Shown here in pieces: positions 1,023 through 45,104 of a stretch of 49,235 nt of DNA. The translations under genes were made by a program, and so were the position numbers. The stretch is from Nitrospirales bacterium (GTDB taxonomy: Bacteria > Nitrospirota > Nitrospiria > Nitrospirales > UBA8639), in NCBI GenBank assembly GCA_022824735.1, contig JAJDZI010000136.1, positions 1 to 49,235 of the forward strand, written 5' to 3'. The notes beneath the pieces are model-generated. The model was given only the letters and a program-made list of their open reading frames with translations, searched no databases and was not told the origin of the DNA. The stretch's first letter is position 1. Every line of letters begins with the position of its first letter.

Positions 1023-3062
<2,040 letters not shown>

Positions 3063-3245: not shown

Positions 3246-3308
3246 GCCTGAACAGTCCATAGGAAAATGCGTTGCACTATTGCCCCATGACTAAGAAAGC
3301 GTGTTTTG

Positions 3309-6300
3309 ATGAAGAAAAAATCTTCCGAATCTCCCGATCCTTCCAAAAAACAACGTAGCGAACCTGAAATTCAAAAACAGGCCAACTCCGGCTCCAACCA
3401 GCCCATTGCAATCGTGGGCATGGCGTGCCGGTTTCCGGGCGCGCCGAACATCTCTGCCTTCTGGCGTCTGCTCGAAGCCGGTGAGAACGCGGTGACCAGG
3501 GGTTCGCCGGGCGAGAGCAACGGGCGCGTGGGCCAGATGTTCCCGAACGACGTGCCCGTGCACGACGCCTCCCGGTTCGGTGCGTTTCTCTCCGGAATCG
3601 ACCAGTTCGACGCGGAATTCTTCCGCATCTCTCCTCTTGAGGCCGCATCCCTGGACCCGCAGCAGCGGCTGCTCCTGGAACTGAGCTGGGAGGCGCTGGA
3701 GGATGCCGGCATTGCGCCGGAACGGCTCGTGGGGAGTCGCACGGGGGTCTATGCGGGAATCGGCAGCTACGAGTACCAGGAATTGGCGTGCGCAGGGAGT
3801 GAGTCCATCGGCCCGGACGCGACGCTGTATATGGTAACCGGGAACCGTTTCAGCACGGCGAGCGGACGTGTGTCATTCTTTCTCGGTCTACAAGGTCCAT
3901 CGGTGGCGATTGACACCGCATGCTCGTCGTCGCTGGTGGCAATGCATCAAGCGATAACGGGCCTCGAGCGCGGCGAGACCGATCTCGCGATCGCGGGCGG
4001 CGTCTGCGTGATCCTGTCGCCCCTGACAACCGAAGTGATGGCCAATGCCGGGATGCTATCGCCGACGGGACAATGCTGGACATTCGACGAGCGGGCGGAC
4101 GGATTCGTGCGCAGCGAAGGCTGCGGGATGCTGGTCCTCAAGCGCCTCGACGAGGCGGAGGCGGCCGGCGACCGGATTTGGGGAGTCATTCGCGGTTCGG
4201 CGATCAACCAGGACGGAGTGCGTCCGGGGCTGTCGGTGCCGATACGACTCACGCAGGAGCAAGTCATTGAGGATGCGCTGGCGCGCGCGTCCGTGGCTCC
4301 GTCACAGGTCGATTACCTTGAGGCACATGGGACCGGAACAAAGCTGGGCGACCCCGTCGAAATCGCCGCCGCCGCATCCGTCTATGGTCGGGGACGGAAC
4401 GACGAACGCCCCCTGCTCGTCGGGTCGGTCAAGACCAATATCGGCCATCTAGCGGCGGCCGCAGGGACGGCTGGTCTTATCAAGGTCCTGCTCGCGATGC
4501 GCCAAGGGGTGATTCCCAAGCATCTCAACTTCCGGAATCCGAACCCGCAGATCCCCTGGAATCCGCGGGTCGTACAAGTGACGTCGGAGATGATGGATTG
4601 GCCAGGTACCCCTGATCGACCGCCTCGGGCGGCGGTGAATTCGTTCGGTTTTTCCGGCACGAACGCGCACGTGGTGGTGGAAGGGTATCCTGCTCCGGAC
4701 ACTACCGGAGCCGATGAAAAACAGTGGCCCACCGGTGCCGCGCAACCCGTGGCCGTGGCACTCCCGGAATTTGCAGCGGACCTGCCGGTCAAAACCGGGG
4801 AACTCACCGCGCGTGCCACCCGGTTCCTGCCCTTATCAGGGAAATCGGACGACGCCTTGCGGGATCTGGCCAAACGATACCTGTCCTGGCTGGACGAACG
4901 AGGGCTTTCATCAGGGGACGCGGTCGAGCCGCTGCTTGCAGACATGGCGTGGACCGCCGGCACCGGACGGAGCCATTTCGATCACCGCGCGGGCGCGGTC
5001 TTCCACGATGTCGCGTCACTGCGGGACCGGCTTAAGGCGCTGGCTGAAGCGGGCCAGGACGCGGAGCCGAGGATGGCGACCACGGTGGCGTTCGCCTATA
5101 CGGGCCAGGCCAGCCAATGGGTCGGGATGGGAGAGGCGCTCTATGCGAGCGAGCCGATGGTGCGGGCGGTGCTGGACCGTTGTGACGCGGTCCTGCGGGA
5201 AACGCGGGGCGCCTCGTTGCTTGACGTGATGTTTGGGCGGGCCGCGACACAGGGTGACTTATACGACGTGGCGTGGACGCAGCCGGCCATCTATGCCCTC
5301 GAGTGTGCACTCACGGCGCTGTGGGCGAGCGCAGGCATTCGACCTGACGTGGTGGTGGGTCACAGCCTTGGTGAATTGGCCGCGGCACAGGCAGCGGGCG
5401 TGTTCGGCCTGGAGGACGGATTGCGATTTGCCGCAACGCGGGGAGCGCTGATGGCGGCTTTGCCGGAAGCCGGCGCGATGGCCGCGGTGTTTGCGCCGGC
5501 GCCGCAAGTGGCAGAGGCCGTACGTGAGCAGAATGCGGCAACCGGATACGCAGGCGTGAGTGTTGCCGCAGACAACGGATCGCATCAGGTGGTTAGCGGC
5601 ACGATCGAGGCGGTTGAGGCGATATCGGAACGCTTTCTCTCCGAGAACCTCCTGGTCAACCGGTTGAACACGACATTGGGGGCGCACAGTGCCCTCGTGG
5701 AGCCGGCGCTGGACGATCTGGAAGCGGCTCTTGCGAATACTGCGATCGCGCCGCCGTCGCTTGCCTTGGTGAGCAACGTAACGGGCCGGGTGATGGGGCC
5801 GGGGGAAACGCTGGATGCGGCGTACTGGCGACGCCAGGCGCGCGAACCGGTGGCGTTCGCCTCCGGTGTCAGAACGTTGGCGGACCGCGGGGTGGACCTG
5901 GTGCTGGAGATCGGGCCGCATGCAGTACTCGGACCGATGGTTTCCCTGGCTTGGCCGAAGTCCGACCGGACGCCGGCACCGGCGGTGCTGTGGAGTTTGC
6001 GTCAACCATCCGACAATGCCCCGGCAGGCAACTCGACGTTCGTCAAAGCGGTCGCCGGGGCGTACACCGCGGGACTTCCAATCCGTTTTGCAGGGCTGTT
6101 CGCGGGAGAAACGCGGCGCCGTATTGCACTCCCGGCTTACCCGTTCCAGCGCCGCCGTCACTGGGTTGACGCACAGAAGCGACGCTCGTCCGATGCGGGA
6201 CACCCGCTTCTGGGGACACGGCAGGATTCGGCCCATGGCGACACCGTGTTTGCCTCAGAGGTCCGCGCAACGGACCCCGAATGGCTGAACGATCACCGGG

Positions 6301-9300
6301 TATTCGATCAGGTGGTGGCGCCGGGCGCGCTGTTCGGCGCCATGGCGGCAGGAGCACTCTGGAGCGAGGGCGTCCGGTCGGTAACTCTGGAAGAATGCCA
6401 GCTACACAGTCCCATGATCCTTCGGGATGAGAAAGCGGAAGGGAACGGGAAGTCGCGCGAAGCGAGCCGAAAGCTGCAACTGCTGTGCGAAGGCCCGAAG
6501 ACGCAATCTTCGCGGCGCTTCGAAGTGTTCAGCAAAGGAAGTGAAGACGACTGGATTCTGCACATGAATGGCCGGATGCTGCCGGACGTGTCCCCCGATG
6601 CAGTCCCGGCACGAATGGATCTCGATGCCGTCAGGGCCGGCCTGACGCGCGGCGACGTCGCAACGCTCTATCGCAACAAAGCCAGCACCAAGGTCGTGCT
6701 CGGTCCGGCGTTTCGCCTGCTGCAAACAATCTGTTTCGGCCCAGGCGAGGCGATCGGCGATATCGTTCTGCCGCAAGGCCTGGAGCAAAGCGGCATGGAC
6801 ATGCATCCCATTCTCCTCGACGGATGTTTCCAGGTCCTGATGGCGGCGCGCGACCAGGCCAGACGCGCCGGCCAGTCAACCTATATGCCGTTCGGGTGGG
6901 AACGGTTGTGGCTGCTCGGACCGCCCCCGCAACACGTCGTCTGCCACGTGCGCATGCGCGGGAGCGGCGCCGGTGCCGAGGCAATCCGGGACGATTCGGC
7001 GGAAGTCCTGAAGGCAGACCTGTGGATCTATGCGCCGGATGGTGAACCCATCGGAGGCGTGGAAGGGTTCACGATGAAGCGGGCGACGCGCGCGGCAATG
7101 CTCGCGACAATGACCGAAGTTCACGACCTGCTTTACGAAGTGGCCTGGCGGGAGCGGGCGCCTGCAAAGGGGCCCGGTTCCACACGGTTGCCCGCCGGCG
7201 CGGCGACCGGGGCGGCTCGATGCGCGTCGTTCTCCGACTATCTGCACATGGAGGGCGTGTCGCCGGCGCAACTGGTCGAGTTACTCACCGATTTGGATTG
7301 CCTGTCGCGATCATACGCTGTCGCGGCGTTCCAACGACTTGATTGCCGGCGGCACGCGGGTGCTGCAGTCGAGCCGCAGGCGCTGGCAGACGTACTCGGC
7401 GTCGGAGCCGAACATCGCAAGCTGTTCACCCGCTTGATCCTGATGCTGAACGAGGCGGGAGTGCTTACCCCCGGGGCGGACGGCAAACTTGCCGTCGCGG
7501 TTGGACGCGGCGAGCCGTTGCCGGACGGAGGACTTGGTGATCCGCAGCGACTGGCCGCCGACCTGGAGGCGAAACATCCATATGGCAGGAACGAGATCGG
7601 GCTGTTGCGCCGTTGTGGCGAAGCGCTGGCCGACGTGCTGCTGGGCAGGACCGAGCCGCTGACGTTATTGTTCGGTAGTGGCGAGCCGTCGGCGGCCGAC
7701 GTCTATCGCCATTCCGTCGCGGCGCACGCCAGCCATCGGCTGCTGGCAGACGCGCTCCTGCCGCTGTGCAAGGCGCTTCCTGAGGGCAGGACGCTGCGTG
7801 TGCTTGAGGTCGGCGCCGGCACGGGCTCCGCGACCGAGGCGGTGCGCTCCGTGCTTCCGGACGGGCGCTTCGACTACGTCTTTACAGACGTCTCCGCAGG
7901 CTTCTTCGCCGCGGCCGAGGAACGCTTCGGCGGCGCAGAAGCCTCATTCGATTACCGGGTTCTGAACATTGAAGTGGATCCGTCAACGCAGGGGTTCGAC
8001 CGGCAGGGGTACGATCTGGTCATCGCGTCAAATGTGCTGCATGCCACACGGCACCTGGGGGAGACGCTGACGCACTGCGGTTCGCTGCTCGCCCCGGGAG
8101 GCCGGCTCGTTGTACTCGAGATCATGCGCGCCCGGCACTGGCAGGACCTCACTTTTGGGCTGCTTGAAGGGTGGTGGCGTTTTGCCGATCCCTACCGGCC
8201 CGCGAGTGCAATCGCCGGCCCTGCGGTATGGCGGCAGGCGCTTGGCGACGCGGGCTTCAGCGACGTGACGATCCTGGGAGGCGGAGACGACAGCGCCGGC
8301 ACACAGGTCGAGCGCGCACTGATCCTGGCCCGTGCTCCCACTGAGACACAGCCGCCTGGCGTGTGGGTGTTGGTATGCGATCGCAGCGGTGTCGGCGATG
8401 CGCTCACGCGTGAGCTTGCCGTGCGCAACCAGACGGTGGTGGTCGCGTGCGAGAATGACGCCGTGGGTCCGGATCTCCATGAGGTCGTGAAGACTCGTGT
8501 TTCACTGCAGCGCCGGGAGTCGTGGAAATCGTTGTTCGACGGTCTGCCCCCGGCACCGGCGTTGCAGGGGATCGTGCACTTGGCGTCGCTCGACGGCCAT
8601 GGGAGACGAGCGACGTCCGGCGAGATCGCGCAGGACGTGAAACACGCGCAGGCAAGCGCACTCGCGTTGGCACAGGGCGCCATGGATGCCGGCGTGACGC
8701 TCGCCAAGGGCCTATGGCTGGTAACGCGCGGCGCCCAGGTCCTCGAACGTGAACGAGAGGGGACACCGGCCGGGGCGACGCTTTGGGGGTTCGGCAAGGT
8801 CCTGGCTTGCGAAGTGTCGCATCTGATGCCACGGATGATTGATCTTGATCCGGAAGTCCCTGTGGACTGTTCCGTTCTCGCCGATGAACTGCTGTGGCCC
8901 GATGGTGAGAACCACATAGCCTGGCGAGGTGGACGGAGACATGCCGCGCGCCTGGTCCGGTCCGGTGTCGCACGACCGCGCATGTCGCTCCCGGACGAAC
9001 GCGGCTGGCGGCTTGAGCCCGGCGCGGGAAGAACGCTCGATTCGCTACACGTGGCGACGGTACCGGCACGTCCCCTGCAACCGGGCGAGGTTCGGGTCGC
9101 AATCGAGGCGGCTGGCCTGAACTTTCGCGACGTGCTGCGCACGCTGGGCATGCTGGAATCAGGGGAACTTGGGTGCGAGTTGTGCGGCAGGGTCGTCGAC
9201 GTCGGCGCGCAGGTCTCGCACTTGTCGGTCGGCGACCGGGTCGTTGGCATGACCTTCGGCACATTCGCAACGGAGGTGGTGACACGGGCCGAGTTGCTGG

Positions 9301-12300
9301 TGCTTGCACCGGCGGGGATCCCATCCGCAGTACTCGCCGGAGTGTCCACCGCGTTTGTGTCAGCCGACTTGTCATTCGAACTCGCCGGGATAAAGCCGGG
9401 CGAGCGCGTGCTGATCCATGCCGGTGCCGGTGGAGTTGGACTCGCCGCTATCCAGTTGGCACAAGCAGCCGGCGCGCGGATATTCGCAACGGCCAGCGCG
9501 CCGAAGCAGGGGTTTCTTCGTTCACTCGGAGTGGATGCGGTGTATGACAGTCGCACGTTGGCTTTCGGGAGGGCGGTCCTCGAAGATACCGGTGGCGACG
9601 GGGTTGATATCGTACTGAACAGCCTGACCGGCAGGGGTTTCATAGAGACAAGCTTGTCCTGCCTTGCGCGCGGCGGCCGTTTTGTTGAACTCGGTGTACG
9701 CGATATCTGGAGCGCGGAGGACGTGGCGATGGCACGGCCTGACGTAGGGTATTCCGTTTTTTATCTGGACAACTTCAAGGAACGTGATTTTGTCCGTGCG
9801 GGCCGGGCGCTTGCGAGCGTCATGAGGCGTATCGAAGCGGGCGATCTGACTCCGATTCCGCATTTGTGTTGGTCAATGGCAGAGACTTCTTCGGCAATGG
9901 CCTTCATGCGTTCTTCCAAACATATCGGTAAAATTGTGCTGACGCAACCGCCGTGTGCGCACGGACGCGTGCGTGGCGATGCGACCTATCTCGTGACCGG
10001 TGGGTTCGGGGGAATCGGCTGCGCGCTGGCCGGTTGGCTTGCCGACCACGGCGCGGGCACGATCGTGCTCAATGGACGCCGCCCCCCGGATGCGGCCGCG
10101 CGGGAGACGATACGTGCGCTGGAATCACGCGGCGTCACTGTACGCAGTGAGATTGCGGACGTGACGGTAGCTGCGGAAGTGGCCGCGATGCTGGGTCGGA
10201 TCGACGCCGAGCTGCCGCCCCTCGCCGGCATCGTCCACAGCGTGGGCGTGCTTGCAGACGCCTCGCTCGTGAACCAGAGCTGGGAGAGCTTCGAGACGGT
10301 GGTCTGGCCGAAGGTACTCGGCGCATGGAACCTGCACCGGGCGACCGAGCATCGCGATCTTGACCTCTTTGTCCTGTTCTCCAGCGCGGCCGGTGTCATG
10401 GGCACTCCCGGGCAAGCGAATCATGCCGCGGCCAATGCATTCCTTGACCAGCTCGCCGCCCACCGGCGGGCGCTCGGCCTTCCCGGCCAGACCATTGCGT
10501 GGGGTGCATGGTCGGAACTCGGCGAGGCGGAGGAGCACCGCGAACGTATCGCCGGACACCTTTCGGCCCGGGGCGTCCGCTGGATGACGCCACGACAAGG
10601 GTTGCAGGTCTTCGAGCGGCTGCTGCGCGAGGACGCGGGGAATGCGGTGGTGATGGCGGCGGACTGGCCGGTGTACGGGGCGGCGCCGACGGCGCCCTTG
10701 CCGCTGATCGAGGAGTTGCTCTCTCTCGGATCGCGGGAAACGGCGCCGGTGCCCGAAATGCCGAAACGGCAGGACGACCTGCTGACGCGCTTGCGAAGCG
10801 CTGCCTTATCCGAGCGCGAAGGGCTGCTGTGCACCTTTGTGCTGGACGAGTTGCAATCGATCATGCGACTCCCCGCGCGACCTGCGCCGCGCGCGCGTTT
10901 CTTTGATCTCGGCATGGACTCCCTAATGGCAGTCGAATTGAGAAATCGCCTGAACCGGGCCTTCGCCGGCGCTTACGTGGCTTCCAACACGTTGGTGTTC
11001 GATTACCCTGACGCTCACACCCTCACTCGATTCCTTGTCGATGAGCTCGCCGAGGCGCTCGGCGGGGAAAGCGAGTCCAAGCCGGTATCGGCTCCCGCCG
11101 AGCAGATTGTCCGCGAGAGGCCGCACCACGGCCCGGGCAGCGACGAGTCGATCGCGATAGTCGGCATGGCTTGCCGGTATCCAGGCGCGCCGGACCTCAC
11201 CGCATACTGGAATCGACTCGCATCGGGCGTCGATCTCATCTCTGACGGACGCCCGGATTTCGAATCCTGGAGCCATGGCGTTGGAGATCCCGGGGCGGTT
11301 CATGCGTCGTTGCGACGCGGCGGGTTCGTGTCGGGTATCGACTGCTTCGATGCAGGCTTCTTCGGTATCCGGCCGATCGAAGCCAAAGCGATGGATCCAC
11401 AGCACCGGATGCTGCTGGAGACGAGCTGGCACGCGCTGGAAGATGCGGCTATCGATCCCTCTCGACTGCAGGGAGCGCGCGCAGGCGTGTACGTGGGTCT
11501 GGGACCGGGTGAGTATCGTGACCTCATAAACGCAGGTGGCGAGCACGGCGGCTATTTCGGCACGATGGGCAGCATTGCGGTGAGTCGTATCGCTTTCGCG
11601 CTCGGACTTGTCGGCCCCGCGATTCCCCTGGATTTGAACTGCGCCTCGTCGCTGGTTGCGGTTCACGAGGCAGCAATGGCGCTGCAGCGCGGTGAGATAG
11701 AACTCGCGCTGGCCGGCGGTGTCAACGCTATCCTGTCGTCCGGGGTCATGGGGTTTCTGATAGAGCATGGCCTGCTCTCCCCGACCGGTCATTGTGCTTC
11801 CTTCGACGCGTCGGCAGACGGGTACGTGCGCGGCGAAGGATGTGGCGTCATTGTCCTGAAACGCTACAGGGACGCGCAGTCTGACGGCGACCGGATTTGG
11901 GGCGTGATCCGTGGCTCGGCCGTCAATCACAGTGGGACAGGTGCCGGGTTGACGATGCCCAACGGGCCGGCCCAGCAGCAGGTCATGCAAGACGCGCTTG
12001 CTCGGGCGGGAGTGGCGCCGTCGGACGTGGACTACGTGGAGGCGAACGCAGTCGGCTCGGCGCTCGGCGACCCCATCGAGGTGCAGGCGACAGCCATGGT
12101 ATACGGCAACGGACGGGAGCAGGAGCGACCGCTGCTCGTTGGATCGGTGAAGTCAAACATGGGCCATCTGGAGGCTGCCGCAGGCATCGCCGGATTGATC
12201 AAGGTCGTACTATCGATGCGCTACGGCACCATTCCGAAGCAACTCCATTTCGAGACGCCGAGCCCGCATGTGGACTGGAACCTGTTGCCGGTTCGGATCG

Positions 12301-13637
12301 CCTCGCAATCGATCGATTGGCCACGCAAGCAGGACCGGACTGCGCATGCCGGCGTCAGCGCGTTCGGACTCTCGGGCACGAACGCACACGTGGTGGTGGA
12401 AGGGTACGGCGACCCGGACGCTGCGGGATTCGATGGAGGACATTGGCCGGCCGGTGCCGCGCAACCCGTGGCCGTTACTCTGCCGGAGTCAGTGGCAACC
12501 CTGTCATTGGCCGAGGAAGAATTCGCTTCTCGCAAGACGCGGGTCCTGCCGCTGTCCGGGAAATCAGGCGTCGCGCTACGGGAGATGGCGAAGCAATACC
12601 TGGCGTGGCTTGACGGACTCGCGCTTTCTTCCGGGGACGCGACCGATCACCTGCTGGCCGACGTGGCCTGGACCGCCGGCATCGGTCGTAGTCACTTCGA
12701 ACACCGGGCCGGGGTCGTATTCCGCGACGCCGCTTCGCTACGGGAAGGGCTCGAGAAGCTGGTAGAGGGGGGAGGACAGGTACCACGGCCAACGACCAAA
12801 ACGGCGTTCACGTACACGGGTCAGGCCGGACGATGGATTCGCATGGGAGAGGCGCTCTATGCGAGCGAGCCGGTGGTACGGGCGGTGCTGGACCGTTGCG
12901 ATGAGGTGTTACGGGAAGCCCGAGGTGCCTCATTACTGGACGCGATGTTCGGGCAGGCCGCAACAAAAGGTGACTTGCACGACGTGGCGTGGACGCAGCC
13001 GGCCGTCTATGCCCTTGAGTGTGCGCTCACGGCCCTGTGGGTAAGCGTGGGGATTCGTCCGAACGTGGTATTAGGACGTGGTCTCGGAGAATTGGCCGCG
13101 GCCCAGGCGGCCGGGGTGTTCGGCTTGGAGGATGGTTTGCGATTTGCCGCGGCGCGGGGTGCGCTGACCGGAGGATTGCCCGAAAGAGGCGCGCAGGCGG
13201 CGGGTCTCGACGATCTGGAAACGGCGCTGAAAGACGTCGCATTTGCAACGCCGTCACGTACTCTGGTGAGTAGCATGACGGGTCGAGTGGTGGAGACGGG
13301 AGAGACACTTGACGCAACATACTGGCGCAGCCAGGCAAACGAGCCGGAAACCTTCGACCGTTGCGCGGAGGCCTTGGCGGATCTGGGAGTGGAGACCGTG
13401 GTGGAAATTGGTCCATGCGCGATACAGGATTCGGCCACCGATGTTGACGAGACGCCAGTCGTGCTGTCGAGCCTGCGAGAACCCGGCGCATTCGCGGAGG
13501 CGGTTGCGGAGGCGTACTCGGCAGGACTCCCGGTTTCGTTCGCCGGTCTGTTCGCAGGAGAAACCCGTCGCCGGATTTCGCTGCCGGGTTATCCGTTCCA
13601 ACGCCGGCGTCATTGGGTCCGGATGCCGAAACGGTAA
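3309..13637 (+). CDS. Type I polyketide synthase, highly-reducing-type module plus a degenerate terminal KS-AT didomain (KS-AT-DH-cMT-ER-KR-ACP-KS-AT); no thioesterase
   Basis: Single 3,442-codon ORF (ATG 3309; in-frame TTG at 3306). Approximate domains: KS1 3402-4690 (DTACSSS Cys codon 3921, EAHGTGT 4326, NIGH 4446). AT1 5085-5935 (GHSLG, Ser codon 5364). DH 6201-7090 (HPLLG, HRVFDQVVAP, LLDGCFQ). C-methyltransferase about 7560-8330 (LEVGAGTGSAT). ER about 9000-9945 (LIHAGAGGVGLAA). KR about 9985-10690 (TGGFGGIG). ACP about 10840-11040 (LGMDSL, Ser codon 10920). KS2 about 11150-12400 (LNCASS Cys codon 11640). AT2 about 12800-13440. Confidence 0.95.
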   Translation: MKKKSSESPDPSKKQRSEPEIQKQANSGSNQPIAIVGMACRFPGAPNISAFWRLLEAGENAVTRGSPGESNGRVGQMFPNDVPVHDASRFGAFLSGIDQFDAEFFRISPLEAASLDPQQRLLLELSWEALEDAGIAPERLVGSRTGVYAGIGSYEYQELACAGSESIGPDATLYMVTGNRFSTASGRVSFFLGLQGPSVAIDTACSSSLVAMHQAITGLERGETDLAIAGGVCVILSPLTTEVMANAGMLSPTGQCWTFDERADGFVRSEGCGMLVLKRLDEAEAAGDRIWGVIRGSAINQDGVRPGLSVPIRLTQEQVIEDALARASVAPSQVDYLEAHGTGTKLGDPVEIAAAASVYGRGRNDERPLLVGSVKTNIGHLAAAAGTAGLIKVLLAMRQGVIPKHLNFRNPNPQIPWNPRVVQVTSEMMDWPGTPDRPPRAAVNSFGFSGTNAHVVVEGYPAPDTTGADEKQWPTGAAQPVAVALPEFAADLPVKTGELTARATRFLPLSGKSDDALRDLAKRYLSWLDERGLSSGDAVEPLLADMAWTAGTGRSHFDHRAGAVFHDVASLRDRLKALAEAGQDAEPRMATTVAFAYTGQASQWVGMGEALYASEPMVRAVLDRCDAVLRETRGASLLDVMFGRAATQGDLYDVAWTQPAIYALECALTALWASAGIRPDVVVGHSLGELAAAQAAGVFGLEDGLRFAATRGALMAALPEAGAMAAVFAPAPQVAEAVREQNAATGYAGVSVAADNGSHQVVSGTIEAVEAISERFLSENLLVNRLNTTLGAHSALVEPALDDLEAALANTAIAPPSLALVSNVTGRVMGPGETLDAAYWRRQAREPVAFASGVRTLADRGVDLVLEIGPHAVLGPMVSLAWPKSDRTPAPAVLWSLRQPSDNAPAGNSTFVKAVAGAYTAGLPIRFAGLFAGETRRRIALPAYPFQRRRHWVDAQKRRSSDAGHPLLGTRQDSAHGDTVFASEVRATDPEWLNDHRVFDQVVAPGALFGAMAAGALWSEGVRSVTLEECQLHSPMILRDEKAEGNGKSREASRKLQLLCEGPKTQSSRRFEVFSKGSEDDWILHMNGRMLPDVSPDAVPARMDLDAVRAGLTRGDVATLYRNKASTKVVLGPAFRLLQTICFGPGEAIGDIVLPQGLEQSGMDMHPILLDGCFQVLMAARDQARRAGQSTYMPFGWERLWLLGPPPQHVVCHVRMRGSGAGAEAIRDDSAEVLKADLWIYAPDGEPIGGVEGFTMKRATRAAMLATMTEVHDLLYEVAWRERAPAKGPGSTRLPAGAATGAARCASFSDYLHMEGVSPAQLVELLTDLDCLSRSYAVAAFQRLDCRRHAGAAVEPQALADVLGVGAEHRKLFTRLILMLNEAGVLTPGADGKLAVAVGRGEPLPDGGLGDPQRLAADLEAKHPYGRNEIGLLRRCGEALADVLLGRTEPLTLLFGSGEPSAADVYRHSVAAHASHRLLADALLPLCKALPEGRTLRVLEVGAGTGSATEAVRSVLPDGRFDYVFTDVSAGFFAAAEERFGGAEASFDYRVLNIEVDPSTQGFDRQGYDLVIASNVLHATRHLGETLTHCGSLLAPGGRLVVLEIMRARHWQDLTFGLLEGWWRFADPYRPASAIAGPAVWRQALGDAGFSDVTILGGGDDSAGTQVERALILARAPTETQPPGVWVLVCDRSGVGDALTRELAVRNQTVVVACENDAVGPDLHEVVKTRVSLQRRESWKSLFDGLPPAPALQGIVHLASLDGHGRRATSGEIAQDVKHAQASALALAQGAMDAGVTLAKGLWLVTRGAQVLEREREGTPAGATLWGFGKVLACEVSHLMPRMIDLDPEVPVDCSVLADELLWPDGENHIAWRGGRRHAARLVRSGVARPRMSLPDERGWRLEPGAGRTLDSLHVATVPARPLQPGEVRVAIEAAGLNFRDVLRTLGMLESGELGCELCGRVVDVGAQVSHLSVGDRVVGMTFGTFATEVVTRAELLVLAPAGIPSAVLAGVSTAFVSADLSFELAGIKPGERVLIHAGAGGVGLAAIQLAQAAGARIFATASAPKQGFLRSLGVDAVYDSRTLAFGRAVLEDTGGDGVDIVLNSLTGRGFIETSLSCLARGGRFVELGVRDIWSAEDVAMARPDVGYSVFYLDNFKERDFVRAGRALASVMRRIEAGDLTPIPHLCWSMAETSSAMAFMRSSKHIGKIVLTQPPCAHGRVRGDATYLVTGGFGGIGCALAGWLADHGAGTIVLNGRRPPDAAARETIRALESRGVTVRSEIADVTVAAEVAAMLGRIDAELPPLAGIVHSVGVLADASLVNQSWESFETVVWPKVLGAWNLHRATEHRDLDLFVLFSSAAGVMGTPGQANHAAANAFLDQLAAHRRALGLPGQTIAWGAWSELGEAEEHRERIAGHLSARGVRWMTPRQGLQVFERLLREDAGNAVVMAADWPVYGAAPTAPLPLIEELLSLGSRETAPVPEMPKRQDDLLTRLRSAALSEREGLLCTFVLDELQSIMRLPARPAPRARFFDLGMDSLMAVELRNRLNRAFAGAYVASNTLVFDYPDAHTLTRFLVDELAEALGGESESKPVSAPAEQIVRERPHHGPGSDESIAIVGMACRYPGAPDLTAYWNRLASGVDLISDGRPDFESWSHGVGDPGAVHASLRRGGFVSGIDCFDAGFFGIRPIEAKAMDPQHRMLLETSWHALEDAAIDPSRLQGARAGVYVGLGPGEYRDLINAGGEHGGYFGTMGSIAVSRIAFALGLVGPAIPLDLNCASSLVAVHEAAMALQRGEIELALAGGVNAILSSGVMGFLIEHGLLSPTGHCASFDASADGYVRGEGCGVIVLKRYRDAQSDGDRIWGVIRGSAVNHSGTGAGLTMPNGPAQQQVMQDALARAGVAPSDVDYVEANAVGSALGDPIEVQATAMVYGNGREQERPLLVGSVKSNMGHLEAAAGIAGLIKVVLSMRYGTIPKQLHFETPSPHVDWNLLPVRIASQSIDWPRKQDRTAHAGVSAFGLSGTNAHVVVEGYGDPDAAGFDGGHWPAGAAQPVAVTLPESVATLSLAEEEFASRKTRVLPLSGKSGVALREMAKQYLAWLDGLALSSGDATDHLLADVAWTAGIGRSHFEHRAGVVFRDAASLREGLEKLVEGGGQVPRPTTKTAFTYTGQAGRWIRMGEALYASEPVVRAVLDRCDEVLREARGASLLDAMFGQAATKGDLHDVAWTQPAVYALECALTALWVSVGIRPNVVLGRGLGELAAAQAAGVFGLEDGLRFAAARGALTGGLPERGAQAAGLDDLETALKDVAFATPSRTLVSSMTGRVVETGETLDATYWRSQANEPETFDRCAEALADLGVETVVEIGPCAIQDSATDVDETPVVLSSLREPGAFAEAVAEAYSAGLPVSFAGLFAGETRRRISLPGYPFQRRRHWVRMPKR
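12399..13619 (+). repeat. Diverged intragenic direct repeat: second copy of the post-KS linker plus AT region (first copy 4680-6167)
   Basis: Long identical runs shared between the copies. Examples: a 23-mer GGTGCCGCGCAACCCGTGGCCGT at 4734-4756 and 12453-12475, and a 30-mer ATGGGAGAGGCGCTCTATGCGAGCGAGCCG at 5127-5156 and 12843-12872. The protein segments are co-linear and highly similar. Copy 2 is about 270 nt shorter. Confidence 0.75.
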
Positions 13638-13868: not shown

Positions 13869-14774
13869 CTATAACAGGCTGTTCTGTTCCAGAAACTCGC
13901 GGAGGAGCGCCACGCATTCCTCCGGTTTTTCGAGTTGAAGGTAGTGGGTCGTCTCCGGCAGGAAATCATATTCCACAGCCACGATGTCACCCAGATCAGC
14001 CGTCGGCAAATAGGCAAACGGCAGGGTGGGATCGGCTCCGATGATTTTTGTCGGGCATGACAACGTTCCAAAATCCACCAACGGTGAAAACCCCCTGATG
14101 TAATCCACGATCTGGGCCTCGTATTCACGAGGGCACCGGAGTTCATAATCCTGTCCGTTCGCGGATGGTCGAAGCGTCGTCCTTGCCATGAGTTCCAATA
14201 CGCCGGGGACGACTCTGGCAAAAGCCGGCAGATAGCGAAGGAGGTCGACAAAGTCCGCCTGTGCTTGAAACCGGTGCCCGCGTCGCCGGGTCATTGAAGC
14301 AGCGCGTTCGGCGACATCATCAAATTCAACATGGCTTTTGCCGGGCTTGTACAGCGGGGGATCAAAGAGGACCTGCGCCGCCAGACTGTTGCTCCGGGGG
14401 GATACAAAAAGGCTCACCAAGGCTGCGACGGAATGAAAGACCCCGATTGTGGGTTTATTCCCGTAGTGCCGGTCGATCGCTTCCAGAATACGTTCCTGGT
14501 CGCGGATCAGGGTCGGAACGTTATGCTTTTGGCGAGAACCAACGGTATTCCACCCGTGGTTCCTGAGGTCGTAGACGATGAGATCGAATTCATCGAGGAG
14601 CAATGACCAGAACGGGTAATAGAGATCAATCGCCAGCCCGTTCCCATGGCTCAACACGAGACGGGGACCGTCCGGATTCCCGTGCCGTCTCAGGACCGTG
14701 ACCGTGTCCTCGTCGAGGCGGACTTCGCACACCGACAGGGGCTCGGGTATCTCCCACACGTTTTCTGAAGTCAT
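13869..14774 (-). CDS. Alpha/beta-fold hydrolase (candidate thioesterase or release enzyme)
   Basis: ORF open to a TTG at 14810. I prefer the ATG at 14774 (MTSENVW). Contains LVLSHGNG (oxyanion-type HG motif) and a nucleophile-elbow-like GVFHSVAA. Lies immediately downstream of, and co-oriented with, the ACP gene. Confidence 0.7.
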   Translation of the reverse strand: MTSENVWEIPEPLSVCEVRLDEDTVTVLRRHGNPDGPRLVLSHGNGLAIDLYYPFWSLLLDEFDLIVYDLRNHGWNTVGSRQKHNVPTLIRDQERILEAIDRHYGNKPTIGVFHSVAALVSLFVSPRSNSLAAQVLFDPPLYKPGKSHVEFDDVAERAASMTRRRGHRFQAQADFVDLLRYLPAFARVVPGVLELMARTTLRPSANGQDYELRCPREYEAQIVDYIRGFSPLVDFGTLSCPTKIIGADPTLPFAYLPTADLGDIVAVEYDFLPETTHYLQLEKPEECVALLREFLEQNSLL

Positions 14775-14844
14775 GGAAGGATCGGGACCACTTGCCGGGT
14801 TCTCTACCAAACCCGCTGAAAAGCGGCGGTGAATCCAACAACGT

Positions 14845-15093
14845 TCAGCCGGTGCGGCTCTCGATAAAGTCGACGAATTTCCTTACCGTGTCAACCTTCG
14901 CACAATCCTCAGGGGCCATCGCCGCCACGTTGAACTCCTGCGCGACCACTTTCCCGAACGCGACAATATCCAGCGAGGACACACCAAGGGCGGAAAAGCT
15001 GGTATTCAGATCTTCCGGCAGGTTCAATGGCTGTCCATCGACTTTCAGGTTTTCGTTAATGAGCGTTTTGATGCGTTCTTCTGTTGATGCCAT
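14845..15093 (-). CDS. Free-standing acyl/peptidyl carrier protein
   Basis: 82-aa acidic ORF with the phosphopantetheine attachment motif LGVSSLDIVAF in the expected position for a 4-helix carrier protein. Confidence 0.85.
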   Translation of the reverse strand: MASTEERIKTLINENLKVDGQPLNLPEDLNTSFSALGVSSLDIVAFGKVVAQEFNVAAMAPEDCAKVDTVRKFVDFIESRTG

Positions 15094-15294
15094 AACGTTG
15101 TACCTCCCCCAGCAAGTAATGGATAATTGATTTGTGCGAGCGAATAAAAAGCCAGAGCCTGGTATTACGCGAATTTACCGAGCATGTCAACATGAGTCCA
15201 CTGCCGGCAATCCAGTGCGACTCATACCTGGCCATCTCACACCGGGAATCCCATGCTTTGTCCTGGAGCGCGGGGGGCGGTAGAATCCAATTCA

Positions 15295-17082
15295 ATGGAA
15301 CCCTTCGACGTCGTAAAACAGTACCATGAGCAGACCAAACATGACTTCAACCGGTATGCCCGCGCGTTGGGATACATGGACTGGGCTAATCAGCCTGATC
15401 CCTTCCGGCGCTATGAAGGGGCCCCGCTCTACGCATTACCGCTGCTCGAAGCCAACGACAAACCCGTTTCTCCTCCTTACGAATCGCTCTTTTCTTCACC
15501 ACCAATCCCTGCCCAACCCCTGACCCTGAACAGTCTTTCCCGATTCTTCGAATACAGTCTCTCCATCACGGCGTGGAAAGAATATGGGGGGAATCGCTGG
15601 GCATTGCGCAGCAATCCGTCCAGCGGCAATTTGCATCCCACGGAAGGGTATCTGCTGATCCGGGAAACCGCTGAGCTTCCGTTGAAGCCGGGACTCTATC
15701 ACTATGCCCCCAAAGAACATGGTTTGGAGCACCGTTGGCACGGCTCGAATGAGATCATCGAAGCTCTCCTGCAACCTTTTCCCGCACAATCTTTTTTCGT
15801 GGGGCTGAGTTCGATCCATTGGCGGGAAGCGTGGAAGTATGGAGAACGCGCGTTTCGCTACTGCCAGCACGACGTCGGTCATGCGCTGGGCACGTTGCGG
15901 ATTGCGGGAGCCGTGCTCGGGTGGGAAGTCTTTCTTCTCGCCGGACTCAATGACCGGACAATCGGGACCCTGCTCGGCCTGGACCGGTTGCATGAATTCG
16001 ATCGTGCCGAACCCGAATTTCCCGAACTGCTGTGCGTGGTCTGTCCCATGCCAACGCTTCTACCTCCCCTACCCCCTCCTCACCCTTCGACTTCGCTCAG
16101 GGCAGGCAAAGGAGGGGAACAAGAAGCACCCCTGCCATTTACCGTTGATCAGGACCTAATCCGGCATTGGGAACACGGAGACTGGCGAGGCAAGGCCAAC
16201 CGATTGAGCCGGGATAATCCCGTTCCCTGGGAAATTATCGACGATGTGACCAAGGCGTCATGGAAAACCTCGACGGAATCATCGGAGCTTCCATGGTTTT
16301 CCTCCCCTGCCCCGATCCGGGAATTGGCTGAAACGGAACCGGCGTCTGTTCCCGATTCCCGTCCGGGCATGGTTTCCGCGCACCGGATCATCCATCAACG
16401 ACGAAGCGCGGTGGCGTTCGACGGGAACACGTCGATTTCCGCACAACAATTCTTCACGATGCTGGAGCGGGTCATGCCTCACGCGGATCGACCGGTCGCT
16501 CAACGGCCCATGCCGTGGGATTCGCTGCCCTGGCTCCCCACCATTCACTTGGCCCTGTTCGTGCATCGAGTCGACGGGCTCCTACCCGGCATGTACATGC
16601 TCCTGCGAAATGGCGACCCGGCGCTTAAGGGCGCCTTTCAACAAGCCATGCATGAGCAATTCGTCTGGACCGTTCCCAATCAGTGTCCGGCATCGCTTCC
16701 GCTCTATCTGTTGGAAGACGGAGACACCCAACGCATCGCCATGCAGTTGAGTTGCCATCAGGAAATCGCCGGCGACAGCGCCTTCTCATTGGGCATGATT
16801 GCGGAATTCGAGGCGTCTTTGGAGAAACATGGACCGTGGTTCTACAAGCGTCTGTTTTGGGAAACCGGACTCATCGGACAGGTGCTGTACCTCGAAGCGG
16901 AAGCGGCCGGTGTTCGTTCAACCGGTATCGGGTGTTTTTTCGACGACCCCGTGCATCGCGTGCTGGGGTGGCATCCCGACACGCGATTTCAATCCCTGTA
17001 TCACTTCACCGTCGGCGGCCCGGTCGAGGATCATCGCCTCACGACCCTGCCGCCCTATGGCGAACTGAGGCCGCTCCCTTGA
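15295..17082 (+). CDS. SagB/ThcOx-type dehydrogenase, two-lobed nitroreductase-family protein
   Basis: N-terminus MEPFDVVKQYHEQTKHDFNRYARALGYMDWANQPDPFRRYEG is the characteristic SagB-type dehydrogenase opening. The C-terminal half ends in the nitroreductase-like GIGCFFDD...YHFTVGGP. An upstream in-frame ATG at 15253 is also possible. Confidence 0.8.
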   Translation: MEPFDVVKQYHEQTKHDFNRYARALGYMDWANQPDPFRRYEGAPLYALPLLEANDKPVSPPYESLFSSPPIPAQPLTLNSLSRFFEYSLSITAWKEYGGNRWALRSNPSSGNLHPTEGYLLIRETAELPLKPGLYHYAPKEHGLEHRWHGSNEIIEALLQPFPAQSFFVGLSSIHWREAWKYGERAFRYCQHDVGHALGTLRIAGAVLGWEVFLLAGLNDRTIGTLLGLDRLHEFDRAEPEFPELLCVVCPMPTLLPPLPPPHPSTSLRAGKGGEQEAPLPFTVDQDLIRHWEHGDWRGKANRLSRDNPVPWEIIDDVTKASWKTSTESSELPWFSSPAPIRELAETEPASVPDSRPGMVSAHRIIHQRRSAVAFDGNTSISAQQFFTMLERVMPHADRPVAQRPMPWDSLPWLPTIHLALFVHRVDGLLPGMYMLLRNGDPALKGAFQQAMHEQFVWTVPNQCPASLPLYLLEDGDTQRIAMQLSCHQEIAGDSAFSLGMIAEFEASLEKHGPWFYKRLFWETGLIGQVLYLEAEAAGVRSTGIGCFFDDPVHRVLGWHPDTRFQSLYHFTVGGPVEDHRLTTLPPYGELRPLP

Positions 17083-32565: not shown

Positions 32566-32865
32566 ATGGATAACGAGAACATGGAAGATTACTGGATTGG
32601 CCGGAACCTCGACGCTCCCCAATTATTTTTCATGTGGGAAGCCGATCGCGCGTATTTTGCGATGCTGTGGGTCCTGGGCGGCATGCTCCTGGGCTCGACG
32701 GTTCTCGGCGTCGTGGCGGCCATGATCTTCGGACGCCTCTACGCACAGATCAAGGAGGAAGGGGGCAAAGGACTCTTGCCGCGCATCCTGTACTGGCACA
32801 CCCCCTCCTCTTTATGGCTTTCCTCTTATCTACCATCCTACTCACGGGAATTCCTCGGACGGTGA
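32566..32865 (+). CDS. traL: Type-F conjugative transfer protein TraL
   Basis: 99 aa. LDAPQLFFMWEADRA, one TM helix, then KEEGGKGLLPRILYWHTP...PSYSREFLG. This is co-linear with F TraL (..KKGRGSSWLRDLIYWYMP..). Confidence 0.8.
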   Translation: MDNENMEDYWIGRNLDAPQLFFMWEADRAYFAMLWVLGGMLLGSTVLGVVAAMIFGRLYAQIKEEGGKGLLPRILYWHTPSSLWLSSYLPSYSREFLGR

Positions 32866-33470
32866 ACAAGGAAAAATATCTTTCAGCGCTTACCAGCGCC
32901 AACTATAAAACCGCCGTCTGGATGCTCGTTGCCGGCGTCCTCCTGATGACGAATCTCCTTCAAGCGCTCTTTCTCTTCACCGCTGATCTCACGGAAAAGA
33001 CCATCGTTGTTCCCCCTGATCTCGTCAAGCCGTTTTCCATCCACAAGAGCAAGGTCAGCCCCGCCTACGTCGAGCAGATGACCCATTATCTCAGCCAGCT
33101 CCTGCTCACCTACCACGACGATAACGTGACGGCTCAATTCGACTCCGTCCTTCGACACGTTGACCCCGCGGCTTACGCACACCTCAAAGCTGAATTCCAT
33201 GCGCAAGCCGAGCGCATCCGGCGCCACCTGATCGGCTCCGTGTTCTATCCCATGGGCATCCACGTCGCCAAATTGACTGCCACCATCAATGGCGAGCTCG
33301 TCAGTATGATTGGGCAAAAAATCGTCTCGCGCAAACAGAAGTACTACCAATTCGACTACGCCTACCGGAACGGCTCATTCTATCTGGTGAAATTCCAAGA
33401 ACTCGAAAAGGGACCGGGGGAAGAACTCAAACCCATTGAACCCAAGGAAGATGAGGAGGTGACTTTCTGA
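32862..33470 (+). CDS. traE: Type-F conjugative transfer protein TraE
   Basis: The GTG overlaps the traL stop (GTGA); an alternative ATG is at 32814. N-terminal TM helix followed by a periplasmic domain co-linear with F TraE (about 190 aa). Position between traL and traK. Confidence 0.7.
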   Translation: MNKEKYLSALTSANYKTAVWMLVAGVLLMTNLLQALFLFTADLTEKTIVVPPDLVKPFSIHKSKVSPAYVEQMTHYLSQLLLTYHDDNVTAQFDSVLRHVDPAAYAHLKAEFHAQAERIRRHLIGSVFYPMGIHVAKLTATINGELVSMIGQKIVSRKQKYYQFDYAYRNGSFYLVKFQELEKGPGEELKPIEPKEDEEVTF

Positions 33471-34198
33471 TGATTCGTCTTGCCCTCCCCTGTCTCTCTA
33501 CCCTTCTGCTCTTTCCGGGCGCAGCAGCCGGCATTCAGAATTTCACGGTCCGTGACGGTGCCAGTATCACCGCCATTATCTCGTCACATGAACTGACCCG
33601 GGTGACGGTCGCCGGCAGCCAACGCCTGGAAAAGGTCTGGGCGCCGGCCGGGACGTTATGGGTTCAGCCCGATGAGGCACAAGGCGATATCTTTATCAAG
33701 CCCGTGGCCGGCGCTCCGGCGACCATGAGCTTCTTCGTCCGTGACGGTGCCGGTGGCACGTATACGATCATCGCTCAGCAGCGCGACGTCCCATCTGAAA
33801 CGATTCTTCTGAACCCCGAGTTACCGGCGCGCCGGGCGAATCCGCGCCAAACCGGACGGCAGTCTTTCTCCTACGTCCGGGAAATCAAGCGTCTCATGCT
33901 CGCCATGGCACTCGACCGGGAGACCAAGGGGTTCACGAAAGACACGCACGACGTTCCTGTGCCGTTCTGGAAGGAAACCCGGATCGTCCACACCGGCACC
34001 TACACCGGCTCTCGCTTCATTGGCCAAGTCTATGAAATCGAAAATCTCACCAGCCAGCCGCTCACGTTCCATGAACAGGAATTCCTTGCCTTCATTCCCG
34101 ATACCCGAGCGGTCGCCCTCCGCCACTTCACGCTCCCTGCGGGCACGTCCACGTCGCTCTATATTGTTCGCGACAATGCCATGAGGATCGAACCATGA
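33470..34198 (+). CDS. traK: Type-F conjugative transfer secretin-like protein TraK
   Basis: 242 aa (the same length as F TraK, as I recall it). Has a signal peptide, overlapping start and stop codons, and the conserved position between traE and traB. Confidence 0.7.
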   Translation: MIRLALPCLSTLLLFPGAAAGIQNFTVRDGASITAIISSHELTRVTVAGSQRLEKVWAPAGTLWVQPDEAQGDIFIKPVAGAPATMSFFVRDGAGGTYTIIAQQRDVPSETILLNPELPARRANPRQTGRQSFSYVREIKRLMLAMALDRETKGFTKDTHDVPVPFWKETRIVHTGTYTGSRFIGQVYEIENLTSQPLTFHEQEFLAFIPDTRAVALRHFTLPAGTSTSLYIVRDNAMRIEP

Positions 34199-35508
34199 AA
34201 CTCCTGAGTGCCAACGAAACCAAACGTAAGCAAATGCTGCTGGCCGGCGGCGCGGGTGTCGGCCTGATCAGCCTCCTGGTCTTCGGCCTTTGGTTCACCG
34301 ACCCCAATAAGGATCAACCCTCTCTTCGCGAAAAGCAGCGCGAACAAGCAGCCGAAGTCACCAAAAGCTTCCGGACCAAGAAGGCTGTCTCGGCTGAGGA
34401 AACCTGGATTGCCAAATCAGAAGAGAAAATTGCGGAACTTGAAAACAAAAACCGTGACGTCACAACGGCCATGAGGAACATCCGAACCAGCCTCGCTGAA
34501 CTCGGTATCGACGTCGGCGCTCTTGCTAAACAATCGCAAGAGAAGCCGGGGGCGGGGACGCCGGGGGCGGAAGAAGAAGAAGCTGGTCTCCCAATACCCA
34601 ACCTGAAACCCAAACCTCCCGATCCTCTTCCGCTGTTAAAGACGCCCGAGCCACCGACGGTCAATCCACCTCTTCCGGCAATACCGGCACTCCCCAGCCC
34701 CTTGCCGCCGGGACAGGGTACGCGCTTAATCACGCCGGCGCGGAACGTCGCCGGCCAGCCTGATAAAACGTCCCCTCAGCAACAAAACGGCGAGATCCAC
34801 ATGGTCACCGTAGGGAATCGCCCGGCCGGGGACGGCGATGCCAAGAACGTCAAGCAATATATTCCCGCGGGAAGCTTTGCCTCGGTCCGTCTCCTCTCCG
34901 GGGTCGATGCCCCCACCGGGGGCGCTGCCAATGCCAATCCTATTCCCGTTCTCCTTCGGGTGATGACTGATGGCACACTCCCCAATTTCTTTCATTCGAA
35001 CGTGTCAAGCTGCCACGTCGTGGCCTCAGCCCACGGCGAAATATCCAGCGAGCGCGCTCACATCCAACTTGAGAGAATCTCCTGCGTACTCCTCAACGGC
35101 AACGCCATCGAAACTCAAGTAAAGGGGTATATCACGGGTGAGGATGGGAAGGCCGGCATGCGAGGACGCCTTGTCTCCAAACAAGGCTCCCTCATTGCGC
35201 GCTCGCTCCTGACGGGTCTCGCTTCCGGTTTCGGGAGAACGCTCCAGCAACAATCCCAGCAACTCGCAACCAGTCCGCTCGGGGCCGTGGCGACCGTCGA
35301 TCCCAACCGTGTTCTGCAAGCCGGAGCGGGTGCCGGAATCTCCACTGCGCTCGAGAAGATTGCCGACTATTATCTCCAGCGCGCGAATGAAATCTACCCG
35401 ATTATCGAAATCGCCGCGAACCGCGAAGGCGAAGCCATCCTCCAGGAAGGTGTTTCGCTCGATCAACCCATCCTTCACAACACTCGTGAGGGAGAGGACC
35501 TCTTATGA
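34195..35508 (+). CDS. traB: Type-F conjugative transfer protein TraB (VirB10-like)
   Basis: 437 aa. N-terminal TM helix, coiled-coil, Pro-rich linker (PNLKPKPPDPLPLLKTPEPPTVNPPLP). C-terminal beta-barrel region with IPAGSF..VRLLSGVDAP...PIPVLLRV, typical of TraB/VirB10. Confidence 0.8.
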   Translation: MKLLSANETKRKQMLLAGGAGVGLISLLVFGLWFTDPNKDQPSLREKQREQAAEVTKSFRTKKAVSAEETWIAKSEEKIAELENKNRDVTTAMRNIRTSLAELGIDVGALAKQSQEKPGAGTPGAEEEEAGLPIPNLKPKPPDPLPLLKTPEPPTVNPPLPAIPALPSPLPPGQGTRLITPARNVAGQPDKTSPQQQNGEIHMVTVGNRPAGDGDAKNVKQYIPAGSFASVRLLSGVDAPTGGAANANPIPVLLRVMTDGTLPNFFHSNVSSCHVVASAHGEISSERAHIQLERISCVLLNGNAIETQVKGYITGEDGKAGMRGRLVSKQGSLIARSLLTGLASGFGRTLQQQSQQLATSPLGAVATVDPNRVLQAGAGAGISTALEKIADYYLQRANEIYPIIEIAANREGEAILQEGVSLDQPILHNTREGEDLL

Positions 35509-35864
35509 AACTTCTCCTGCTCAGCGTTTTCGCCGGCCTGGCGGCTTGTGGGCCGACGTACACCTGCGGGGACGTTCCGGACGCCGTCTGCCAATCGGTT
35601 TCAGAAACCTACGATCAGGTCCGGGGCGACGCGGGGCAGGACTCTCACGCGATTTTCACTCCTGACCCTCCCGGCCACGTCACCCCCACGACACCGGATA
35701 TGGCGTCTTCACCAAAAGACGCCGGTTTTGGTGAGCCGTTCCTGACACGGCCACGCCTGCTCAGAATCCTGCTGACGCCTTGGGAGGACAAACAGAAAGA
35801 CCTTCACGCCGGCGGGTACGTCTATATCCGTCTGGAGGAATCACAATGGGTGATACCCAGGTAA
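35505..35864 (+). CDS. traV: Type-F conjugative transfer lipoprotein TraV
   Basis: 119 aa. Lipobox LAAC with paired cysteines shortly after it (CGPTYTCG...VC). Position between traB and traC. Confidence 0.65.
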   Translation: MKLLLLSVFAGLAACGPTYTCGDVPDAVCQSVSETYDQVRGDAGQDSHAIFTPDPPGHVTPTTPDMASSPKDAGFGEPFLTRPRLLRILLTPWEDKQKDLHAGGYVYIRLEESQWVIPR

Positions 35865-38437: not shown

Positions 38438-38453
38438 CATTGAACAGGACACC

Positions 38454-43592: not shown

Positions 43593-43617
43593 GTCTAATT
43601 GGACTCCAAGATTTCCA

Positions 43618-45078: not shown

Positions 45079-45104
45079 GGAGGTCATGAGCCATTAACTG
45101 GGAA

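Follow-up and report, generated by a model that had tools for sequence, protein, structure and literature searches.

Does a ketosynthase (KS) domain that has lost the first of its two catalytic histidines still extend a polyketide chain, or does it only hand the chain on? This question is raised by a type I polyketide synthase (PKS) encoded in a 49,235-nucleotide stretch of DNA from a Nitrospirales bacterium (GenBank assembly GCA_022824735.1, contig JAJDZI010000136.1, positions 1 to 49,235), the whole of which we refer to as the window. The synthase ends in a second KS and a second acyltransferase (AT), termed KS2 and AT2, and in KS2 the histidine of the HGTGT motif is replaced by Asn2914. We propose that KS2 is a KS0-like acyl transferase that feeds a discrete acyl carrier protein (ACP) and a hydrolase encoded next to the PKS, and that it is likely not elongating, a reading to which we assign a probability of about 0.55. 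The replacement itself, according to the alignments and phylogeny described below, is an inherited and selected trait of one minor branch within an already known family of synthases.

The PKS reading frame is open throughout and encodes 3443 residues; its domains and motifs are listed in Table 1. Residue numbers count from the TTG at 3306 as the start. The codon right after it, at 3309, is an ATG, and the database copy of the protein has 3442 residues, indicating that this ATG is the probable start and that the true residue numbers are probably one lower. Pfam searches of the protein found no thioesterase (TE), reductase, or condensation domain and no ACP in cis after KS2. KS1 carries the canonical motifs DTACSSS, EAHGTGT, and NIGH. 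KS2-AT2 is a paralogue of KS1-AT1, with 60% identity by internal BLAST. The original prediction, made from the window's sequence, had placed an Asn in the HGTGT equivalent of KS2, next to a retained active-site Cys and second His, and an intact EAHGTGT in KS1; the translation, a script, and the raw DNA bore out all of these assignments. KS2 thus lacks the first His (Asn2914) and keeps Cys2779, two features expected of KS0 domains. In AT2, GRGLG (13074-13088) stands where AT1 has GHSLG, and ~73 residues spanning the small subdomain and the catalytic-His region are missing. The catalytic motifs outside AT2 all match the family pattern, including the LGMDSL motif of the integrated ACP, which did not vary among the 21 family members aligned.

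A search with the C-terminal region of the PKS returned more than 100 homologues of ~3350-3600 residues with two KS domains at the same positions. This family spans several phyla, and many of its members come from sponge metagenome-assembled genomes (MAGs), the named ones including Nitrospira, Bryobacterales, and Bacteroidetes MAGs of sponge bins. We aligned the C-terminal 870 residues of 110 members. The Cys, the Lys, and the second His of KS2 are each present in all 110 rows. The first His is kept in ~101 rows (~92%), is replaced by Asn in eight (the window's protein, P0051, P0052, P0063, P0094, P0100, P0103, and P0116), and by Gln in one (P0037). The third-position Thr of the HGTGT motif is found in only ~27 rows of KS2, compared with nearly all KS1 domains. 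The catalytic Ser of AT2 is replaced in ~100 of the 110 rows, and the ~73-residue deletion is present in all 15 aligned KS2-AT2 rows, even in those that still read GHSLG. Because the Cys, Lys, and second His of KS2 are kept while the Ser and the subdomain of AT2 have been lost, we conclude that selection acts on the chemistry of KS2 and not on that of AT2.

In a maximum-likelihood tree of 109 KS domains, all KS2 sequences formed one clade (SH-aLRT support 100), apart from KS1 and from modular KS domains, and the eight Asn-type KS2 were monophyletic (SH-aLRT support 100). P0037 fell outside the Asn clade, revealing a second, independent loss of the histidine. H2914N is the sole universally invariant position at which the Asn clade differs from all other KS domains. 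An assembly slip does not account for the Asn, because it is common to seven related proteins and to three alphaproteobacterial loci (motif VEANGVGS). In addition, a 151-nucleotide contig from another sponge metagenome, sampled in the same study, spans positions 11967-12117 with zero differences. The His-to-Asn change is a trait of one sub-clade and not a peculiarity of the window's gene.

KS2 is under purifying selection. The ratio of nonsynonymous to synonymous substitution rates (dN/dS), computed on the window and two Asn-type loci (L002 and L003), was 0.11-0.19 for KS2, 0.07-0.17 for KS1, and 0.24-0.29 for AT2. The ratio of KS2 to KS1 amino acid distances was 1.62 in Asn-type pairs versus 1.69 in His-type pairs of similar depth. 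Taken together, the dN/dS values and the distance ratios indicate that the strength and the pattern of constraint are unaltered by the replacement of the His. By sequence comparison, such constancy would fit either a family in which the first His was never needed, because KS2 transfers chains family-wide, or an Asn that still does the work of the His. We also considered a burst of rapid change on the stem of the Asn clade and rejected it: the sister sequence P0043 resembles the clade only in KS1, and the distance ratios revealed no acceleration. Because P0043 carries a recombinant KS1, the long stem branch is a recombination signal.

To what type of ketosynthase does KS2 belong? An AlphaFold2 model of KS2 alone, built on a 69-sequence alignment, reached a pLDDT of 83 and a pTM of 0.89; a model of KS2-AT2 built on 16 sequences was unusable (pLDDT 49.8), and the fold results rest on the KS2-alone model. 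Its top Foldseek match was the CurL KS-AT (PDB entry 4mz0; TM 0.88, 48% identity). In sequence searches of the PDB, the best full-domain single matches were the CurL and DEBS KS-AT proteins, and the trans-AT KS of PksJ scored lower. By sequence and predicted fold, KS2 is a cis-AT-type ketosynthase, and it clusters only with the KS2 domains of its own family. An affinity to trans-AT KS0 clades, for which the original prediction had suggested a check, was not borne out: KS2 is of the cis-AT type and sits in a KS2 clade of its own, in a tree that contained no trans-AT KS0 sequences.

A transferring KS2 would need a partner. An α/β hydrolase gene and a gene for a discrete ACP follow the PKS on the opposite strand. 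Besides its Pfam match, the discrete ACP matches the NCBIfam acyl carrier protein family, below the cut-off. We compared 11 loci, namely the window, seven from the same genus, and three from Alphaproteobacteria. In each of these, spread over two phyla, the genes in the vicinity of the PKS include one for a hydrolase and one for a discrete ACP. The seven same-genus genomes share the gene order gyrB, PKS, hydrolase, ACP, and a SagB-like gene, with identities to the window of 89-96% for gyrB, 79-85% for the hydrolase, and 74-79% for the ACP. Hydrolase homologues in the three Asn-type alphaproteobacterial loci are 56-58% identical (53-58% with G030 included), more distant homologues of the discrete ACP occur in L001-L003, and a phosphopantetheinyl transferase is also present in one of the three alphaproteobacterial loci. 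The hydrolase motifs HGNG, G-x-x-H-S, and GADP and a C-terminal His are invariant in the compared loci, and searches of the PDB and NCBIfam with the hydrolase returned remote matches only, with no solved or named close enzyme. We regard the discrete ACP as the candidate acceptor of the chain from KS2, with which it would pair in place of an ACP in cis, and the hydrolase as the candidate release enzyme.

Our proposal for the pathway is as follows. The KS1-AT1-DH-cMT-ER-KR-ACP portion would work iteratively to assemble an acyl chain that is reduced and methyl-branched. From the integrated ACP, the presumed donor, the finished chain would then pass to Cys2779 of KS2, where His2954 and Lys2949 would have been retained for thioester exchange. 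No extender would be decarboxylated, the first His being absent and AT2 both dead and shortened. From KS2 the chain would move to the free-standing ACP (14845-15093), and the adjoining hydrolase (13869-14810) would release or transfer it. The linker and AT2 would persist, probably as a structural or docking platform. Of this scheme, the residues and their conservation, the purifying selection, the conserved gene cassette, and the clade structure are observed, whereas we infer that condensation is lost, which way the chain travels, and what the ACP and the hydrolase do. A transfer or off-loading role, as opposed to a second elongation, had been put forward in the original prediction. It is the best-supported reading, since KS0 domains are typically without the first His, KS0-AT0 pairs offer precedents, and an ACP and a hydrolase accompany the PKS in 11 of 11 loci; that condensation has been lost is more than sequence alone can show. 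A transacylase role of KS2 throughout the family is the simplest extension of this scheme, because constraint and partners are the same in His-type and Asn-type proteins and the His has been lost twice, and we think that KS2 probably does act in this way family-wide.

Similar steps are known from other assembly lines. In enacyloxin biosynthesis, the acceptor is a peptidyl carrier protein (PCP), and release is carried out by a condensation enzyme. KS0 domains are cited as shuttles that take acyl chains from one ACP to another or onto a PCP (PMC7923214). They typically lack the HGTG His, and the H346A mutant of DEBS KS1 leaves ~1% of product (PMC7327777). The window's KS2-AT2 resembles the KS0-AT0 pairs ClyE of the chlorosphaerolactylates, Bamb_5919 KS2-AT2 of enacyloxin ("dual transacylation"), and SlnA9 KS2-AT2 of salinomycin, the active-site residues of which were aligned by the authors of the ClyE study. 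All combine a His-less KS with a Ser-less AT, and the role proposed or shown for them is the passage of acyl chains between carrier proteins, with a separate enzyme for release (PMC7923214). These pairs differ in belonging to multimodular or hybrid assembly lines, and we set them beside the window by description only. In monensin biosynthesis, the KS-like transferase MonKSX hands the full-length chain over to MonACPX, a discrete ACP, and the chain is hydrolyzed by MonCII (PMC3943991, PMC4147253). Like that system, to which the NanE thioesterase of nanchangmycin may be added, the window encodes a PKS that lacks a TE, a proposed KS-like transferase, and an ACP and a hydrolase that are separate proteins, a likeness by analogy only. 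The window's proposed transferase, however, is a fused C-terminal KS2-AT0, and no tailoring enzymes for an ACP-bound chain are evident. Its hydrolase, with remote PDB and NCBIfam matches only, revealed no specific relation to MonCII or NanE in a comparison by description. Trans-AT KS0 domains likewise keep the Cys and lack the HGTG His, and no condensation is expected of them (PMC7327777), but the window's KS2 is of the cis-AT type, belongs to a clade of its own family, and has an AT remnant, though no ACP in cis, behind it. A literature search on the exact PKS architecture yielded no match.

The origin of the Asn-bearing domain bears on how these parts fit together. The window's PKS is ~80% identical to the Asn-type proteins of alphaproteobacterial MAGs in KS1, DH, cMT, ER, KR, ACP, and KS2. 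Both linker-AT regions have only 42-64% identity to the Asn-type proteins; their nearer matches are resident-lineage proteins of the His type, two of which, P0011 and P0027, are named Nitrospira, and the first ~40 residues are also nearer to the resident lineage. For most 40-residue segments of KS2, identity to the Asn-type loci is 75-98%, compared with 42-72% for the His-type proteins of the genus, and the per-domain synonymous distances (dS) repeat the mosaic pattern. Apart from the breakpoint between KS2 and the linker (Table 1), further breakpoints lie near residues 400 and 920. On the basis of the identities, dS, and the sharp breakpoint, we conclude that recombination brought the Asn-bearing KS2 into a resident locus with conserved synteny, in which linker-AT2, hydrolase, and discrete ACP have stayed of the resident type.

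The distribution of the two types is uneven. Among 36 same-genus genomes searched, 16 carry the PKS, and its KS2 is His-type in every case. In a sample of the phylum (201 genomes, 81 genera), the PKS was found only in the window's genus, in 6 of the 10 other genomes there. Three same-genus genomes (G010, G017, and G032; loci L097-L099) encode a shorter form of 3228-3237 residues, in which the C-terminal match ends at query residue 577 of 845 and AT2 seems to be further shortened. The alphaproteobacterial genomes G241 (C1 and C4) and G243 (two places on C1) carry both Asn-type and His-type paralogues (loci L124-L126 and L134). Near the His-type copies, a hydrolase adjoins the one in G241 and an ACP the one in G243. 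Two sponge-metagenome runs from a single study contain the window's stretch, and one of the two is probably its source; no RNA run was listed as containing it. In the region of 11800-12100, the same metagenomes also include contigs from further Sup-like KS2 domains that read EAHG at the motif, from which we conclude that Asn-type and His-type synthases share one host community.

Several points weigh against a KS2 that only transfers. An Asn can still donate a hydrogen bond, so that residual or even full condensation could persist, and a His/Asn pair serves in KAS III-type enzymes and type III PKSs. The first His, and with it the full Cys-His-Lys-His set, is retained by most of the family, which argues that the His matters for something, and the joint presence of Asn-type and His-type paralogues in G241 and G243 hints at different jobs. 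The direction of transfer is assumed, the similarity of the hydrolase to solved or named enzymes in the PDB and NCBIfam is remote only, and, because the gene is a mosaic, the window's KS2 is paired with the ACP and hydrolase of another lineage. It is conceivable, though unlikely, that KS2 still condenses: Asn2914, perhaps with His2875, would polarize the malonyl thioester, one last unreduced C2 unit would be added to an extender on the discrete ACP, which AT1 or FabD would charge in trans, and the hydrolase would free a β-keto acid or methyl ketone. The strict conservation of Lys2949 and His2954 and the unchanged constraint on KS2 after the His-to-Asn change would suit such a reaction. A compensating histidine near the site, which in the original prediction would have spoken for condensation, does have a candidate in His2875, which could substitute in part for the first His. 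This position is Gln in 95 of the 110 family rows and His in seven of the eight Asn-type rows, but also in seven His-type sister rows, and it is Tyr in the Asn-type P0052; His2875 is therefore older than the His-to-Asn change and not obligatory. Condensation is further disfavored by the degenerate remainder of the motif (NAVGS), by the dead AT2 of ~100 of the 110 members, and by the fall of DEBS KS1 to ~1% with Ala at the first-His position (PMC7327777). A weak and indirect indication against a part for His2875 comes from the corresponding Gln of the NQDG loop, which was not among the conserved residues <10 Å from the Cys chosen for mutation in EryKS1 (PMC7327777).

Could the chain run the other way? 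In this case the discrete ACP would bring a starter acyl chain, for example from fatty acid synthesis, and KS2 would load the synthase. ClyE offers a parallel, its KS0 taking the chain from the discrete ACP ClyB (PMC7923214), and the PKS has no dedicated loading domain while the discrete ACP is conserved. However, KS2 comes after the integrated ACP in the protein, where a downstream KS normally sits, the annotated neighbors in the window include no acyl-AMP ligase, and the conserved partner is a hydrolase, which suits release; we consider loading improbable. It is more doubtful still that KS2-AT2 is only a non-catalytic dimerization or docking scaffold. KS-AT didomains form the dimeric core of PKS modules, and AT2 is clearly non-catalytic yet kept, but the Cys, Lys, and second His are invariant in all 110 members, whereas the catalytic residues of AT2 have decayed in the same proteins, and dN/dS of KS2 is as low as that of KS1. 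Very improbable, finally, is a recent non-functional recombinant heading to decay. At least two lineages have contributed to the mosaic gene, its breakpoints fall at domain borders, and loss is common, as the 16 PKS-bearing genomes among 36 searched illustrate. Against this, no stop interrupts the 10.3-kb frame, the catalytic motifs other than those of AT2 follow the family pattern, the Asn is an ancestral character of the imported segment and no new lesion, and the second metagenome sample is identical over 11967-12117. Transfer of the chain from KS2 to the discrete ACP remains our preferred reading.

The family to which the window's PKS belongs is best matched to the Sup ("sponge symbiont ubiquitous") clusters, an assignment made by published descriptions and not by the SupA sequence; no search returned a protein named SupA. 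The Sup cluster is said to comprise supA-supE, reportedly since the work of Fieseler et al. in 2007. Sup PKSs are described as small, mono-modular, methylating, fatty acid synthase-like enzymes of sponge symbionts, for which methyl-branched fatty acids have been proposed as products (PMC3908369, PMC4245539). The window's PKS is likewise a single-module, methylating protein of ~3400 residues with a second KS, a shortened dead AT, and no release domain. The origin agrees as well, as the window's stretch is contained in sponge metagenomes and family members come from sponge MAG bins. The cassette partners, the discrete ACP and the α/β hydrolase, occur in the window, at seven same-genus loci, and at three alphaproteobacterial loci. 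The window differs from the Sup-type family in that its KS2 carries Asn, compared with a first His in ~92% of members, and in that its gene is an inter-lineage mosaic. In the same genome as the window we noted a second PKS, in an open frame of 2357 residues (G000 contig C90, ~8929-10917, minus strand). SwfA proteins of sponge symbionts have 2349 and 2361 residues (PMC3908369), and the second frame is near them in length.

Table 1. Positions in the window of the PKS, its C-terminal motifs, and the adjoining cassette genes
Feature	Position	Strand	Basis
Type I PKS, single module, KS1-AT1-DH-cMT-ER-KR-ACP-KS2-AT2	3306-13637	+	ORF (open reading frame) list, translation, Pfam
Integrated ACP, residues 2512-2576, LGMDSL serine motif	10839-11033	+	Pfam PP-binding
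KS2 domain, residues ~2610-3035, imported Asn-type segment	11133-12410	+	Pfam, AlphaFold2 model, Foldseek, sliding-window identity
KS2 active-site Cys2779 codon TGC, in DLNCASS (11631-11651)	11640-11642	+	Script and raw DNA
EANAVGS (residues 2912-2918), equivalent of the HGTGT motif	12039-12059	+	Script and raw DNA
Asn2914 codon AAC, in place of the first catalytic His	12045-12047	+	Script and raw DNA
KSNMGH, with Lys2949 and second catalytic His2954 (CAT at 12165-12167; NMGH 12156-12167)	12150-12167	+	Script
His2875 codon in VNHSG, NQDG-loop equivalent	11928-11930	+	Alignment of family rows
KS-AT linker and AT2 remnant	12411-13634	+	BLAST of KS1-AT1 against KS2-AT2
Approximate recombination breakpoint, imported KS2/resident linker-AT2, residues ~3000-3020	12303-12365	+	Sliding-window identity, per-domain identity, dS
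α/β-Fold hydrolase, convergent on the PKS	13869-14810	-	Pfam Abhydrolase_6
Discrete ACP, 82 residues, GVSSLD serine	14845-15093	-	Pfam PP-binding, 1.8e-7

Some further features of the PKS and its surroundings were noted. The KR domain reads GQANHAAAN at 10410-10436, with a His where the catalytic Tyr is expected. This His is family-wide (GQ[AS]NHAAAN in 21 of 21 aligned members) and probably does not inactivate the domain, and in a review the Tyr of KR domains is described as "sometimes replaced by histidine" (PMC7327777). Upstream of the PKS lies gyrB (1056-3062), which we considered as a self-resistance copy and rejected; as it is 89-96% identical and syntenic in the same-genus genomes, it is a housekeeping gene. 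No permease gene was found next to the PKS, a further difference from the Sup cluster. Adjoining the discrete ACP, positions 15253-17082 encode a 609-residue protein that includes a dehydrogenase domain of the SagB family (NCBIfam TIGR03605, 1.6e-32). Although syntenic across the same-genus genomes, this gene was not detected next to the Asn-type loci, and we did not count it in the cassette. At 32634-48977, the same contig carries F-type conjugation genes for TraE, TraK, TraB/TrbI, TraC, TraU, and TraG (the last with a lysozyme domain), suggesting that an integrated conjugative element lies at a distance of ~19 kb from the PKS.

Sup-type PKS genes are reported to dominate among the PKS genes of high-microbial-abundance sponges and made up >99% of KS amplicons in one survey (PMC4245539). 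Our literature search turned up no tested function of the Sup KS-AT tail. For the window alone, our results amount to a correct annotation detail and not to a new kind of system. By analogy, the Asn-type KS2 may be described as a sub-lineage variant of a known family that is functionally akin to KS0-AT0 and KSX systems and stands outside the trans-AT KS0 clades. A far-reaching proposal, which we hold only tentatively and think unlikely, would use the Asn sub-clade as a natural experiment: the terminal KS of all Sup-type synthases would be no elongating enzyme but would begin a dual-transacylation release that leads from KS2 over the discrete ACP to the hydrolase. More boldly, the Cys-Asn-His site, with the Cys/Asn/His identities of thiolases, would carry out a different, non-decarboxylative off-loading, which would set Asn-type apart from His-type paralogues of the same genome. 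As the product of the Sup synthases is only proposed, the Asn sub-lineage provides a testable handle on the role of the KS-AT tail, and Asn-type and His-type synthases, sometimes in one genome, form a ready natural pair for biochemical comparison.

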